Below, piece by piece: positions 3,115-17,999 of a stretch of 33,703 nt of DNA (the first letter of the stretch is position 1; each line of letters starts with the position of its first letter). The notes under the pieces were generated by a model. The model saw only the letters and a program-made list of their open reading frames with translations. It had not been told where the DNA came from and searched no databases. This stretch comes from Hadesarchaea archaeon (lineage in GTDB: Archaea > Hadarchaeota > Hadarchaeia > Hadarchaeales > Hadarchaeaceae): positions 1 through 33,703 of the forward strand of contig JAUWXQ010000003.1 in NCBI GenBank assembly GCA_030616305.1, given 5' to 3'. The position numbers were made by a program, and so were the translations under genes.

Positions 3115-3996
3115 ATGGAACACGAACATTTGATTCCGATCAGACCCGGCTTCGGCGGCTTCGATGAGCCCTACGAGCGGGCCAATGTGGTGTTCATGGG
3201 GGTTCCGCTAGACGTCACCTCTAGCTACCGCTCCGGATACCGGTTCGCCCCCGCCAAAATTAGGGAGGCGTCAGCGAACCTTGAGACATACCTGACATCT
3301 GCGGGGTTGGACGTCTTCGAGCAGCTCAACATCTCCGACGTTGGCGACATCGTAATCACGCCCACTGACTTAAAGGCGACCGGGGAGCGAATCACCCGAC
3401 TGGTCAAGCGAGTGAGCGGCGAAGGGAAGATGCCGATTCTGCTTGGCGGGGAACACACCCTGACCTACTTCGCTCTACAAGCCTTCGATGATATCTCTGT
3501 GATACAGCTTGACGCCCACCGCGACCTTCGCGACGAGTATATGGGCGACAAGCTCTGTCATGCGACGGTGATGCGCAGAGTACTCGAACATCTACCGCCC
3601 GAGCGCCTTCTACAATTAGGCATCCGCTCGTGCTCCAAGGAGGAAGCAGAGTTCGCGCAGGAGACGGCAGTGACAACCTACACATCGGAGCAGGTGATCG
3701 GCGATGTTCAAGGAGTAGTTGCAGCAGTGAAAAAGCTCGCTGGCGACTCGCGCGTTTACCTAACGATTGATTTGGATGTCCTAGATCCTGCTTTCGCTCC
3801 TGGGGTCGCGACACCCGAGCCTGGCGGCCTCTCCACGGTGGAACTCCTGCGTTTGATTAGGGAACTCGGGAAACTTAACGTGGAGGCTTTTGACGTGGTA
3901 GAGCTTGTTCCGCCCCACGACGATGGAACCGCTGCCTTCGCTGCAGCAAAAATAATCTACGAATTACTTGCAGCAATAGCGAGCTCAGTAAAGTAG
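3115..3996 (+). CDS. speB: Agmatinase (ureohydrolase family)
   Basis: GVPLDVTSSYRSG.RFAP, LGGEHT, DAHRD and TIDLDVLDPAFAPGV.TPEPGG metal-binding motifs. ATG 3115 preferred to TTG 3046. Confidence 0.9.
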   Translation: MEHEHLIPIRPGFGGFDEPYERANVVFMGVPLDVTSSYRSGYRFAPAKIREASANLETYLTSAGLDVFEQLNISDVGDIVITPTDLKATGERITRLVKRVSGEGKMPILLGGEHTLTYFALQAFDDISVIQLDAHRDLRDEYMGDKLCHATVMRRVLEHLPPERLLQLGIRSCSKEEAEFAQETAVTTYTSEQVIGDVQGVVAAVKKLAGDSRVYLTIDLDVLDPAFAPGVATPEPGGLSTVELLRLIRELGKLNVEAFDVVELVPPHDDGTAAFAAAKIIYELLAAIASSVK

Positions 3997-13295: not shown

Positions 13296-13481
13296 TTACC
13301 TAACTTTCAGCGCATATTTTCCAGGCTTGGTGATATTGAGACGCTTCGCGATTTCGGAGTTATCGGGTTCAAGCACCACAACGTAACCGGTCCAATCATT
13401 TGAGAGGGATGCCCCACCACAGTTCGGGCAAGTGTTTGCTTCGGTGAGGAGGTTACAATTGCGGCATGCTTTTTCCTTCAA
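13296..13481 (-). CDS. spt4: Transcription elongation factor Spt4 (RpoE'')
   Basis: KACRNC...CPNCG...WTGYVVVLEP..SEIAKRLNI.KPGKYALKVR. TTG start at 13481 overlaps the rpoE1 stop. Confidence 0.95.
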   Translation of the reverse strand: MKEKACRNCNLLTEANTCPNCGGASLSNDWTGYVVVLEPDNSEIAKRLNITKPGKYALKVR

Positions 13482-14032
13482 GCCTTCGCCCCCTTGCGGG
13501 CCTCCTCGATCCACTCCAGTTTACCAAGCCCTGGCTGTCGCATGGTCAAGCCTATCTTCCCGCCTTTCGTGCCGCGCTTCAGGCTCACGCTCACTATGCG
13601 GGCCCTAACCTTGTCTCCCTCCTTGAGCAAGCGCTTTGACTCCTTTCCGTAAAGGGCACCTTTTTTCTTGTCATAACCAACGAAATCGTCCATCACCTGA
13701 GAAACATGCGCGAGCCCGTCGATTGGCCCCAGACGAACGAACCCTCCAAACTCCACAATCTCAACAACTTCGCCAAGCACGACCTCATTGACCTCGGGCT
13801 TGTAGATGAGCGCCTCGAAAGTTACGTCGTGGTAGCTGGCGCCATCACCCATTATCACCCTGCCGACCCCGACCTCTTTGAGCTCAGTAATCGCTAAGAT
13901 TGTCCCAACATCTTTGTCTGTCAACCCCTGGTAATCCTTGCGGATGACGTCGATAATGACCTCGTTTGTTGGTTCGGAAAACCTATTAGGGGGCACGCGG
14001 ACTGTGTCCTCCACGGTCACTATCTTGTACAT
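13478..14032 (-). CDS. rpoE1: DNA-directed RNA polymerase subunit Rpo7 (E')
   Basis: EDTVRVPP, GDGASYH, S1 domain FGGFVRLGPIDGLAHVSQ, KIGLTMRQPGLGKLEWI. GAGGTG precedes ATG 14032. Confidence 0.97.
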   Translation of the reverse strand: MYKIVTVEDTVRVPPNRFSEPTNEVIIDVIRKDYQGLTDKDVGTILAITELKEVGVGRVIMGDGASYHDVTFEALIYKPEVNEVVLGEVVEIVEFGGFVRLGPIDGLAHVSQVMDDFVGYDKKKGALYGKESKRLLKEGDKVRARIVSVSLKRGTKGGKIGLTMRQPGLGKLEWIEEARKGAKA

Positions 14033-14251
14033 CACTTCACCTCAATTTTTGTAATTTTCATCATGCGGGCTATCATCTTATGTGTAACCTCCTCGCACGG
14101 CATTGGAATACCTTTCTCCTTTCCCTTCAACTCCTTATAAACACAGAAGAAACGTGCGACTCTTTTACCAGACGGACTACCTCCAAGCCCTTTACCCGGT
14201 AAAATGAGGCGGCCTTTTATCTAGCTTTATGTCTTTCTTAATATCTATCAT
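14032..14251 (-). pseudogene. ppa: Decayed remnant of soluble family I inorganic pyrophosphatase
   Basis: Three consecutive frames give MIDIKKDIKLDKRPPHF / (Y)RVKGLEVVRLVKE / xARFFCVYKELKGKE...EEVTHKMIARMMK. These resemble the N-terminus and the C-terminal VKDL.DV...LKEIAHFF..YKELEGK motif of family I PPases. The catalytic core (DxDxxD) is missing and there are two frameshifts. Confidence 0.72.
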
Positions 14252-14252
14252 T

Positions 14253-16265
14253 TCATCCGCCCCAGACTTTTAACAGGAGTGGGACGAACAACAGGGCAGC
14301 CATTGACATCAGCTTGATCAAGATGTTGAGAGACGGACCTGAGGTGTCCTTAAACGGATCCCCTACGGTGTCCCCTATCACGGATGCCGCGTGCGTCTCG
14401 CTTCCCTTTCCACCCAAGTGTCCTTCCTCGATGTATTTCTTTGCGTTGTCCCATGCCCCCCCGGCGTTCGCAAGGGTTATCGCTAACAAGAGCCCTGTGA
14501 CTATCGAGCCCACCAGCAGGCCACCCAGAGCCTCCACACCAAGGATGAGACCAACTACAATCGGGCTGAGGATAGCCAACGCGGCCGGGAGAGCCATGTT
14601 TTTAAGGGCAGCGGAGGTGCTGATCCCTATACACCTGTTGTAATCCGGCTTCGCTTTTCCCTTCATCAACCCGGGGATAGTCCGGAACTGCCGTCGTACC
14701 TCTCCCACAATCAGGGACGCTCCCTTGCCCACCGCACGCATGGTGAGCGCGCAGAACAAGAATGGCAACATCCCCCCTATGAATATCCCAACGATAACCT
14801 TTGGGTCCATGATGTTGAGTGTTTGGATATTCACCGCTTGAGTATATGCGAAAAACAACGCTAGCGCAGTAAGGGCAGCTGAACCGATCGCGAACCCTTT
14901 ACCTATCGCAGCGGTGGTGTTCCCGACTGCATCGAGCCGTTCCGCGCGAACCCTCGTGGTCTTTCCCATCTTGGCCATTTCGGCTATCCCTGCCGCATTG
15001 TCGGCCACGGGACCGTATGTGTCTGTGGCAAGCGTTATCCCAAGCGTGCTCAACATGCCGACCGCTGCAATCGCTATTCCGTAAAGCGCTGCGAAGTAAT
15101 ATGCCACAAGGATCGCCACGGATAGCGCTATGATTGGAACCACCGTGCTCAGCATCCCTACAGAAAAACCGCTGATGATATTGGTCGCAGGGCCCGTCTG
15201 CGAGGACACGGCAATAGATTTCACAGGAGAAAATCTGTTTTCAGTGTAATACTCCGCTGAGATACCAATCAAAATCCCAGCGATAAGCCCGGCCAGCAAC
15301 GCGTAAAATATCTCAATTGCGCCAACGAAAAACCAGATAAGGAAAAACGACGCTGCCGCCATCAAGAAAGCGCTCCCGAATACCCCCTTGTTGAGGGCCA
15401 TGTGAAGGACCTTTATTCCTGCACCCTTCCCTGTCCGCACGAAAAATGTTGCCACGATCGAACAAAATATCCCGACCGCAGCAAGTAACATGGGAAGCAC
15501 CACGGCATCTGTCTGGCCCAGCGCGACGCCTCCTACGGTGACCCCCATGAAACCGATTACCATCGCAGCGATAATCGACCCCACGTACGACTCGAAAAGG
15601 TCTGCCCCCATCCCGGCGACATCCCCGACGTTGTCGCCCACGTTGTCTGCGATCACAGCTGGATTTCGCGGGTCATCCTCCGGGATTTTAGCTTCGACCT
15701 TTCCAACCAAGTCTGCACCCATGTCCGCCGATTTTGTGTAGATGCCGCCGCCTACCCGCGCGAAAATAGCTATCGAACTTGCCCCAAAGCCAAAGCCAAC
15801 GATTATCTCAGGGTTCCCAAACAGAAAATAGAAGATGCTCACGCCAAGAAGTCCAAGCCCGACAACGCACATCCCCATCACCGCACCGCTTGAAAAACCA
15901 ACCTTTAACCCCTTCCCGATGCTTTTCCTAGCGGCTTCTGCTGTTCGGGCGTTTGATTTAGTAGCTACCCTCATTCCAACGTTGCCAGCCAGCGCCGAGA
16001 AAAATGCCCCTACCACGAAAGCTATGGCGGTGGGATAGTTCACAACCAGTGCCAAAATCAATGCCACGATGACTGCGTAGACTACCATCACGCGATATTC
16101 TTTGTTGAGAAAAGTCATGGCCCCGCGGTAGATGATGTCCGAAAGTTCCCGCATCCGCGCTGTCCCGGCGGGCTGTCGTAAAATCCTGAAAGCGAGGTAC
16201 CCTGCGAACACGAGGGCTATCGCACCAGCTATCGGAGCTAGCATCGCGGGCTCGAATTCAAACAT
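14253..16265 (-). CDS. hppA: Membrane-integral ion-pumping pyrophosphatase, K+-dependent type, probably Na+-translocating
   Basis: GGGIYTKSADMGADLVGKVE, IPEDDPRNPAVIADNVGDNVGD, DTYGPVADNAAGIAEM, GNTTAA (Ala marks K+ dependence), GGAWDNAKK, GDTVGDPFKDTSGP, many TM helices. Confidence 0.96.
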   Translation of the reverse strand: MFEFEPAMLAPIAGAIALVFAGYLAFRILRQPAGTARMRELSDIIYRGAMTFLNKEYRVMVVYAVIVALILALVVNYPTAIAFVVGAFFSALAGNVGMRVATKSNARTAEAARKSIGKGLKVGFSSGAVMGMCVVGLGLLGVSIFYFLFGNPEIIVGFGFGASSIAIFARVGGGIYTKSADMGADLVGKVEAKIPEDDPRNPAVIADNVGDNVGDVAGMGADLFESYVGSIIAAMVIGFMGVTVGGVALGQTDAVVLPMLLAAVGIFCSIVATFFVRTGKGAGIKVLHMALNKGVFGSAFLMAAASFFLIWFFVGAIEIFYALLAGLIAGILIGISAEYYTENRFSPVKSIAVSSQTGPATNIISGFSVGMLSTVVPIIALSVAILVAYYFAALYGIAIAAVGMLSTLGITLATDTYGPVADNAAGIAEMAKMGKTTRVRAERLDAVGNTTAAIGKGFAIGSAALTALALFFAYTQAVNIQTLNIMDPKVIVGIFIGGMLPFLFCALTMRAVGKGASLIVGEVRRQFRTIPGLMKGKAKPDYNRCIGISTSAALKNMALPAALAILSPIVVGLILGVEALGGLLVGSIVTGLLLAITLANAGGAWDNAKKYIEEGHLGGKGSETHAASVIGDTVGDPFKDTSGPSLNILIKLMSMAALLFVPLLLKVWGG

Positions 16266-16290
16266 CACATTACCTCAGAAATTTCAACCT

Positions 16291-16671
16291 CTAAATCCAC
16301 CCGTCTATTGCAAGATGAGACTTTTGCCGTAAATAAATTACTGGGACGCCCTGGCGCCGTAGCTCCTTTCTCAGGAGCGCATCAGTAGTCCCAACCACGC
16401 ATTGCTTATGGGTGGCGAGTTTTAGGATCACCTCATCGGCCCCGCCTTTTGCTTTGATGACCGACCCTCGTTTGATTAATAGCAGGCCAACCCTTGCCGC
16501 TGCCCTCTCCTTTGGTTTGCCATGCTCCGAGATACGCTTGAGCTCCTGCACAACAGGGTTTGGAATCGCTAATTTGTAGGGGCGTTCAAGCAACCTTTCG
16601 AGTTCGCTCAAGATGTCAACACCGAACATACCTGGTATCATTAGAAAGCTAGTGTCCGCGATAACCTGCAA
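16291..16671 (-). CDS. PIN-domain protein (Fcf1/Utp24-like rRNA-processing nuclease)
   Basis: VIADTSFLM, V.QEL, ADEVI, TTDALLRK.LR..GVPVIYLRQK. Occupies the usual position after aIF2-gamma. Confidence 0.88.
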   Translation of the reverse strand: MQVIADTSFLMIPGMFGVDILSELERLLERPYKLAIPNPVVQELKRISEHGKPKERAAARVGLLLIKRGSVIKAKGGADEVILKLATHKQCVVGTTDALLRKELRRQGVPVIYLRQKSHLAIDGWI

Positions 16672-16684
16672 CCAAATTCACCAT

Positions 16685-17899
16685 TCAGCCGATAATACCG
16701 TGTCCGATCAAGCGCCACCTGCCAGCAATGCGGCGACTCAGCGCTGCTCGAGTACCACGTTCGGCGCATACCGGGAGCTTCAGCCTCACGGTGACCTTGC
16801 TCCCCCGGGCGCTCGTGATGGTCCCAACCGTCATAGCTGTTCCCACGTTCAGCATGAGGGGCTCCCCCGTCACAAGAGGCTTCACCTCTAACTCTTCCTG
16901 GAGCCCAACTACCCGCCTCATCAGATGGATCTCCAATTCCAGCGTGTCAAGTACCTCCGGAATGCTTCCTGGAGTTCCTAGGACGGAGCCCACGAGAGAG
17001 TCCCCCTTAGTCATGGACGGATCAAGTAAGGTACCCACGCCAATCAAGCCACCCGGTACTGCTTCCTCCAACGAGCTGTCCATCGCGTGCAGGCTGACTG
17101 CCTTTGAGTTCAAGTGCTGCCATGTCGTTTTACCCTCCCGGCTCACCCTTATTCCCGGGCGAAGCTCTATGTCATCACCCACACTTAGCTTACCTTGAAG
17201 TAGCGAGCCCCCCAAGACTCCTCCCACAAGTTTTTCCGGCCTTGCCCCTGGGCGGTTGACATCGAACGAACGAGCGACGTACATGCGCAGAGGTTTTGTG
17301 AGGTTCCGCTTGGGTGTTGGGATGTGCTCTTCGATCGTCTGAATCAACTTGTCTATATTTGCCCGATGGATGGCCGAGACAGGGATTATCGGGACATCTT
17401 CGGCGAAGGTGCCCGCGAGGAACTCCTTTATCTGGTTATAGTTCTCGAGAGCCTTTTCGCGCGGGACCAGCTCAATCTTGTTCTGTGCCACAACTAGATT
17501 CCGCGTCCCGATTATCTCTAGGGCCATGAGGTGCTCCTTTGTCTGGGGCTGGGGACAGGACTCATTCGCGGCAATCACAAGCATAGCGCCATCCATAATC
17601 GCGGCCCCAGAAATCATCGTGGCCATTAGCATCTCGTGTCCTGGAGCATCGACGAAGGAAACGCGGCGCAGAAACTTGGTGTTCGCCCCACAGTAAGGAC
17701 ATTTCTCCTCCGTGCTGTGACGGCCGCACTCCGAGCAGCGCATGAAAGACGTGTCAGCGTAGCCAAGGCGGATGGTGATGCCGCGGCGTATTTCTTCGCT
17801 ATGTACATCGGTCCAGACGCCAGATAGTGCCTCTGTGAGCGTCGTTTTACCGTGATCTATGTGACCTACAAGGCCTATGTTGACGACAGACTGGGGCAT
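16685..17899 (-). CDS. eif2g: Translation initiation factor aIF2 gamma subunit
   Basis: [25 protein letters not shown], Zn knuckle [49 protein letters not shown] 17899 follows GAGGTG. Confidence 0.97.
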
Positions 17900-17999
17900 C
17901 CTAAGCACCTCGTTCAAGTTTTCGGCTCAAATGATATAAAACGCGCAGGCTTTCCACAGATACAAATCAAGAAACAAATGTTGGTTTCCGTCATGGTAA

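Follow-up and report, generated by a model that had tools for sequence, protein, structure and literature searches.

We report that the 220-nucleotide (nt) spacer between hppA and rpoE1 in a Hadesarchaea archaeon, genes encoding a membrane-integral pyrophosphatase and an RNA polymerase subunit, respectively, is very probably a pseudogene of ppa, the gene for the family I soluble inorganic pyrophosphatase (PPase). The window, i.e., the whole stretch of DNA analysed, comprises 33,703 nt (contig JAUWXQ010000003.1, assembly GCA_030616305.1), and the pseudogene covers positions 14032..14252 on its minus strand, as judged from frameshift-aware alignment, DNA alignment, the corresponding site in relatives and contigs from three studies. 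Comparison within the class suggests that ppa has been lost independently in several lineages and that the window carries one of several parallel losses. An earlier reading of the letters alone (the original prediction) had proposed that a soluble PPase was replaced in place by a membrane PPase, with the dead ppa still visible next to it.

The spacer is filled entirely by the ppa relic. The hppA stop codon TGA is at 14255-14253 and an ATG (14251-14249) begins one base further on, while the spacer terminates in a TGA (14034-14032) whose A is shared with the rpoE1 ATG (14032-14030), giving a TGATG overlap. On the minus strand frame 1 of the spacer translates as MIDIKKDIKLDKRPPHF.., frame 2 as VARFFCVYKELKGKE...EEVTHKMIARMMK.. 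and frame 3 as ..YRVKGLEVVRLVKE.., and this layout together with all the peptides quoted in the original prediction could be reproduced. For the comparison with Ppa we used a custom protein-to-DNA aligner that tolerates frameshifts and one long gap. With default penalties the spacer scored 117 against the intact Ppa of the relative G008 (related genomes are denoted G and their loci L), to be compared with 33.2 ± 6.2 for 150 dinucleotide shuffles (maximum 55), 34.7 ± 6.2 for 147 random 220-nt pieces of the window (maximum 57) and 28 for the reverse complement of the spacer. The Ppa of G011 gave 109 vs 34.5 ± 6.1 for shuffles, and with harsher penalties the two queries scored 95 (G008) and 91 (G011) while shuffles gave approximately 27 ± 4. 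Moreover, the N-terminal 17-mer of the relic has an ungapped BLOSUM62 score of 44 with the N-terminus of G008 Ppa, which is the top value when all six frames of the window are read as 17-mers (67,300 in total; runner-up 27), and the D-K-R that it contains is shared with G008, the nearest relative according to the flanking genes.

Approximately 16 N-terminal and the last approximately 60 codons of family I Ppa (PF00719) thus align with the relic, including the ..FF.VYKELEGKE.. stretch, and the orthologues in the relatives have the same position and strand. At the DNA level the relic is 0.52-0.61 identical to intact ppa genes over 220 columns and, because intact genes from different genera are themselves 0.67-0.74 identical, it appears to be decayed but not far. 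The DNA layout was taken from MAFFT alignments; pairwise comparison in which end gaps were free or gap extension was very cheap gave collapsed or scattered alignments. Significant similarity in a frameshift-tolerant comparison and the chromosomal position of the intact orthologues are what a pseudogene should display. Unlike a functional family I member, the spacer has stops in all three frames and no uninterrupted frame of approximately 175 amino acids (aa), it lacks the roughly 100 codons carrying the metal-binding Asp cluster (the D-x-D-P-x-D and D-D-K columns of the Asp-rich core), and its remainder is out of frame. The relic cannot act as an enzyme. One line of evidence weighs against the assignment: a PF00719 scan of the three frame pieces gave nothing at E≤10 and a six-frame search of the whole genome with the same model gave no match. 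Since the core covered by the model is deleted, the model would be expected to miss the relic, and the homology case as it stands is built on close orthologues and not on the Pfam model. The proposed dead ppa is therefore upheld by the frameshift-aware alignment, and by intact ppa at the same site in six relatives, with the family I profile being silent.

Three segments can be distinguished in the relic, all on the minus strand. The start codon and some 15 further codons are preserved at 14204..14251, followed by the junction of an internal deletion (14204..14212) marked by a short CCNC microhomology, and by a C-terminal segment (14035..14203) extending from residue ~116 to the end. The deletion takes residues ~16-115 of the 176-aa protein, or ~300 nt, and with them the invariant columns D67, D69, D72, D99, D104 and K106 (alignment A1), which we take to be catalytic; loss of the catalytic core had been predicted. 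The C-terminal segment has an in-frame TAA at 14194-14192 and gaps of 5 nt at ~14180, 1 nt at ~14159-14162 and 2 nt at ~14114-14116, with more small indels downstream. The single base proposed to be missing near 14159 agrees with the second of these gaps, and the total number of breaks exceeds the two frameshifts originally counted. A plausible sequence of events in this lineage would be that the ~300-nt deletion at the short microhomology took out the catalytic core, and that the stop codon and the small indels later broke what remained of ppa.

To place the relic we sampled the class as 65 genomes belonging to one order and carried out detailed searches on 41 related genomes; 30 hppA loci were mapped by tblastn. 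The membrane enzyme is nearly universal, hppA being present in 40 of the 41 relatives; family I ppa (PF00719) was found in 5 of the 41, and in 7 of the 65 class genomes, and the family II marker DHHA2 in none of the 41. An intact ppa lies between hppA and rpoE1 in G008, G026, G040, G046 and G052, and at the same site, next to an inverted hppA, in G011; the relatives thus include six in which intact ppa accompanies hppA at the site and others from which ppa has been lost. PIN adjoins hppA in 26 of the 30 loci, and hppA is colinear with a downstream rpoE1 in 21 and inverted in one (G011). A search of the window's own genome, which is 89.6% complete, detected no other soluble PPase of family I or II, family III (HAD-type) not being searched.

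Several individual loci deviate from this layout. In G011 (L012) hppA has the opposite orientation to PIN and ppa, and a long branch on the hppA tree, while ppa has its own A/T-rich upstream region. Genus g10 (L025 and L029) has a rearranged locus in which hppA is found not between PIN and rpoE1 but ahead of S6e-aIF2g. G006 carries a divergent ppa (L005, 1444-1968) approximately 42% identical to the others and located beside a thermosome gene, with a hppA-rpoE1 spacer of 56 nt; this ppa may be a re-acquired or foreign copy. In G026 (L007, ~3850-3918) the otherwise intact ppa shifts frame at a G run close to the 3' end such that the last ~20 codons are in another frame, owing either to an error of assembly or to a first lesion.

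Spacers without intact ppa are 312, 220, 187, 185, 174, 169, 169, 157, 116 and 100 nt long, followed by a series from 64 down to 0 nt. All those of at least 100 nt can be aligned with the 3' part of ppa and differ from one another in their deletion patterns. On a tree of the flanking proteins (23 rows, several branches weakly supported) at least five changes of ppa state can be counted, and genus g8 alone comprises two species with intact ppa and two that share one relic; the unique transition implied by the original prediction is at odds with this. The first ~45 nt of ppa are kept in the relics of G000, G012 and G019 and not in the other relics, and in the relic of G012 and G019 (L008 and L009) the old N-terminus is joined to part of the C-terminus in an open frame of 46 codons. 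The 312-nt spacer of G002 (L118) contains a small ppa relic preceded on its upstream side by ~250 nt of GC-rich sequence; an apparent split of hppA in the same genome, a congener of the window, turned out to be a run of N in the scaffold.

We suggest that the ancestor of the class had the operon aIF2gamma-PIN-hppA-ppa-rpoE1, with both pyrophosphatases side by side, that the soluble PPase would have become dispensable with the membrane enzyme present, and that independent losses would have left relics ranging from 312 nt down to nothing, the removal of inorganic pyrophosphate (PPi) presumably resting on HppA alone by now. This corresponds to non-orthologous gene displacement, a general concept of Koonin and colleagues, in that a reaction is served by two unrelated enzymes, one of which disappears in the presence of the other. 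It differs from it in that the two genes have long been immediate operon neighbours, and in that there are several parallel losses with datable relics; the causal link is what we infer. Dispensability of ppa is plausible because both H+- and Na+-pumping membrane PPases complement the essential soluble PPase of yeast (PMC7438732), and the replacement of yeast IPP1 described there can be regarded as an experimental analogue. Some points weigh against this scenario. Because hppA is nearly universal in the class, the proposition that hppA made ppa dispensable is beyond test by correlation; other genes are found downstream of hppA in 8 of the 30 loci; a completeness of 89.6% leaves room for a second ppa on unassembled DNA; and the divergent ppa that G006 keeps away from the locus makes such a copy elsewhere conceivable. 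Overall, the locus is a clean and well-documented case of ordinary gene loss, a known process, and presents no new kind of biology.

Why the 3' end of the dead gene persists is a separate matter, and we consider the chances evenly balanced that it is kept for signals in the expression of rpoE1, namely a TATA-like TTTATAAGG, a leader and a Shine-Dalgarno site. Nearly all spacers have in common the former coding stretch for ..FF.VYKELEGKE.., with TTTATAAGG (the V-Y-K-E codons) inside it. In the window the heptamer TTTATAA (14135..14141, minus strand), derived from the V-Y-K codons, is a candidate for the TATA box of rpoE1, whose ATG lies 106-109 nt further downstream, and GAGGTGA (14037..14043, minus strand), within the last ppa codons and 4 nt before the rpoE1 ATG, is a putative Shine-Dalgarno-like site that alignment shows to be conserved in the spacers of the relatives. 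Throughout the window 9 of 17 TTTAWAW sites fall in the intergenic 4.3% of the DNA, and two intergenic heptamers precede the starts of aIF2g (by 23 nt) and pheS (by 21 nt). Sense-strand TTTAWAW occurs in 11 of the 15 spacers without intact ppa, vs 0.94 expected from shuffles, and the distances of the spacer heptamers from the downstream rpoE1 ATG fall into two ranges, 38-55 and 88-109 nt. The spacers of G022 and G015, which have one relic architecture, are identical at 119 of 155 positions vs 0.435 at the four-fold degenerate sites of the flanking genes (binomial 4e-17). Moreover, Tyr141 of V-Y-K-E is encoded by TAT in six of six intact genes, the other Tyr codons being mixed (naive p 0.004), and in G002 the TTTAWAW element is almost all that is left of ppa.

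The alternative, that the relic is pure junk from a recently dead gene and that the shared pieces reflect recent independent losses from a gene constrained as protein, we consider quite possible, its chance being a little short of even. Relic architectures differ among the relatives, intact G008 is placed within, or as sister to, the relic-bearing clade of genus g1 on the flank tree, and the spacer of G012 and G019 is as diverged as four-fold sites. In the spacer, moreover, the density of population variants (5 and 4 sites in 217 nt) equals or exceeds that of the flanking genes. This explanation fits poorly with the identity of 0.77 between the G022 and G015 spacers, compared with 0.435 at four-fold sites, and with a TATA-like element kept where all else is gone (G002 and G006). 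A role in rpoE1 expression has, in its turn, several observations weighing against it. The candidate TATA box lies 106-109 nt from the rpoE1 ATG, compared with 21-23 nt for the two clear promoters in the window; the strict heptamer is absent from 4 of the 15 spacers (G001, G005, G012 and G019); and the G012/G019 spacer is no better conserved than four-fold sites (0.83 vs 0.78-0.85). With respect to the promoter, the relatives are not independent of each other and, among the public runs, no RNA run carries the stretch. Recent parallel losses from a gene under protein constraint could also yield part of the conservation pattern.

The hppA gene (14253-16268, minus strand) encodes a membrane-integral pyrophosphatase of 671 aa that matches PF03030 over profile positions 2-645 of 645 (E 6.2e-273), i.e., in full length. 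Its best relatives of solved structure are 4a01 (595 bits), 4av3 (563) and 8b37 (469). The motif GNTT-A-A-I-G is identical to that of VrPPase in the alignment and places Ala and Gly at the columns matched to 12.46 and 12.49, an assignment deduced from the pattern. K+ independence is defined by the substitution A12.46K, in most cases together with G/A12.49T, while among K+-dependent enzymes the Glu is at 6.53 in the Thermotoga Na+ pump and at 6.57 in the Vigna H+ pump (PMC10897367). The window HppA has in common with the H+-PPase of Vigna radiata (4a01) and the Na+-PPase of Thermotoga maritima (4av3) the K+-dependent signature (Ala 12.46, Gly 12.49), and with the Thermotoga Na+ pump the Glu at 6.53. 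The only recognisable pyrophosphatase of this archaeon is thus predicted to be K+-dependent and is possibly Na+-pumping.

In total 33 hppA genes were typed, 30 of them by a tree and those of G002, G046 and G052 by identity. The tree of 30 genes separates into two deep clades with branch support 100; clade A has Ala/Gly and clade B Lys/Cys at the 12.46/12.49 columns, with Glu at 6.53 in both. The window protein is 83-86% identical to HppA of genus g8 and 54-57% identical to that of its congeners G001, G004 and G005, with which, together with G008, the flanking genes group, unlike hppA. In the same slot these three congeners have an enzyme with K12.46, and with Cys instead of the usual Thr at 12.49; close relatives thus carry a K+-independent, H+-type signature where the window has a K+-dependent one. 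The window's type is also that of the congener G002. Genera g1 and g9 each include both types, in the same PIN-hppA-rpoE1 slot, and none of the 41 genomes holds both as full genes. The loci with the two types are the window (14253-16268), L022, L023 and L026 (G001, G004 and G005), L008 and L009 (G012 and G019) and L118 (G002). We also considered the exchange of hppA as the cause of the ppa deletion, with donor DNA ending inside ppa; the N-terminal D-K-R of the relic matches native-like G008 and not g8, and this candidate was rejected.

As to when hppA reached its present position, the Ppa profile of the class fetched 80 loci in named genomes (best matches ~52% identical), which include neither the class's own ppa loci nor any Thermococcales locus. 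In 19 of the 80, all Methanobacteriaceae-type records, the order is aIF2g-PIN-ppa-rpoE1 with no hppA, in agreement, as far as this family goes, with the gene order given in the original prediction. These clusters have the gene order and strand of the window and differ from it in that no hppA is located between PIN and ppa and that ppa is intact. One of the records, L045, is titled as a Bacteroidaceae bin and carries the archaeal aIF2g-PIN-ppa-rpoE1 arrangement; it is probably mis-binned or mislabelled. Outside the class ppa is also found near hppA in bacterial and thaumarchaeal records (L063, L065, L069, L074, L079, L080, L095, L100 and L106), directly adjacent in most of these nine loci and ~3 kb apart in L063 and L080, i.e., adjacency of ppa and hppA recurs. 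Because of the 19 loci without hppA, an old insertion of hppA between PIN and ppa is a plausible and the simplest history, its direction being deduced from one outgroup.

The original prediction had placed this event close to the present, with hppA having recently entered just upstream of ppa and the window caught mid-way through displacement, and this we find unlikely. The hppA-free loci (19 of 80) make an insertion at some time probable, and the window's hppA belongs to another clade than that of three congeners, which implies that hppA was exchanged in or near this lineage. Against a recent entry stand the presence of hppA in this slot in each of the five families of the class (hppA being found in 40 of 41 genomes, and colinear in 21 of 30 loci) and its co-occurrence in six genomes with an intact ppa. 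As for the exchanged hppA, it is old, four-fold sites being 0.37-0.40 identical to the nearest g8 relatives and hence saturated, and the N-terminal relic is native-like (D-K-R as in G008) and not g8-like. Entry of hppA upstream of ppa followed by decay thus stands as regards insertion, which is plausible, and fails as regards its recency. Co-residence of hppA and ppa is ancestral to the class, and the original prediction was right in kind and wrong in timing and uniqueness.

Taken together, we tentatively entertain, as possible and no more probable than that, a combined scenario in which the dead 3' end of ppa including TTTATAAGG has been co-opted as promoter and leader of rpoE1, while the neighbouring slot exchanges K+-dependent and K+-independent hppA within one genus. 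If true, co-option would explain why at least five independent losses of ppa all spare the TTTATAAGG piece, and close archaeal relatives would differ in the ion pumped by their only pyrophosphatase. The class also offers a concrete candidate for the reuse of coding sequence as a promoter, and shows that two membrane PPase subfamilies alternate at one locus in a single genus. A 2024 review of microbial pyrophosphatases (PMC11210485) lists as an open question the coexistence of the two kinds of PPase, membrane and cytoplasmic, and their evolution in archaea. The present class constitutes a natural series in this respect, with the two genes once adjacent in one operon and ppa now intact in 7 of 65 genomes, present as graded relics or lost without trace. 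Most of these archaea would then depend on an ion-pumping enzyme for all PPi removal and, in energy-starved subsurface life, such an enzyme would turn a waste reaction into membrane potential. The literature retrieved for Hadarchaeota or Hadesarchaea and pyrophosphatase contained, judging by titles and abstract openings, no study of these enzymes.

A small functional peptide might also still be made from the relic, corresponding either to the C-terminal helix of Ppa or to a short frame that lies upstream of rpoE1 and is coupled to it via the TGATG. In its favour, the stop of the last frame is where it was in ppa, in overlap with the rpoE1 ATG, and G012 and G019 have the 46-codon frame from the old start. 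We find such a peptide very improbable: the minus strand of the spacer has no frame of at least 40 aa, the frames vary among the relatives, the N-terminal halves in G012 and G019 differ at many residues, and Pfam gives no family.

Finally, contigs of sequencing runs from three studies span the spacer with no gaps and few substitutions. Contig X1 covers the whole stretch with 1 difference, its run possibly being the window's own source, X2 covers 13712-14370 with 9 differences and X4 covers 13712-14700 with 16. The same deletion and frame breaks therefore exist in several populations, and the indels that the original prediction wished to see supported by reads are present in the contigs of all three studies with no inserted or missing letters. 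That ppa is intact in the cell and broken by assembly or sequencing errors has, for a metagenome-assembled draft genome of 58 contigs, a vanishingly small probability, considering these concordant contigs, a 300-nt gap that is atypical of consensus errors and comparable relics in the relatives.

The minus strand carries every gene in the region. Upstream of hppA are a gene for a PIN_9 domain protein (16291-16671) and the aIF2 gamma gene (16685-17917), both identified by domain matches, and the TTTATAT at 17934-17940, 23 nt upstream of aIF2gamma, is judging by its position a likely promoter of the operon. Downstream of the relic rpoE1 (13478-14032) encodes the Rpo7/RpoE' subunit of RNA polymerase with SHS2 (SHS2_Rpb7) and S1 domains. 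A structured RNA in the spacer was considered and found to be unsupported, with no match in an Rfam scan of 13900-14400 at E≤1 and an unremarkable folding of the spacer (z = -1.15). On the plus strand an ATG frame of 40 codons (14080-14202) runs antisense to the relic and is probably spurious.

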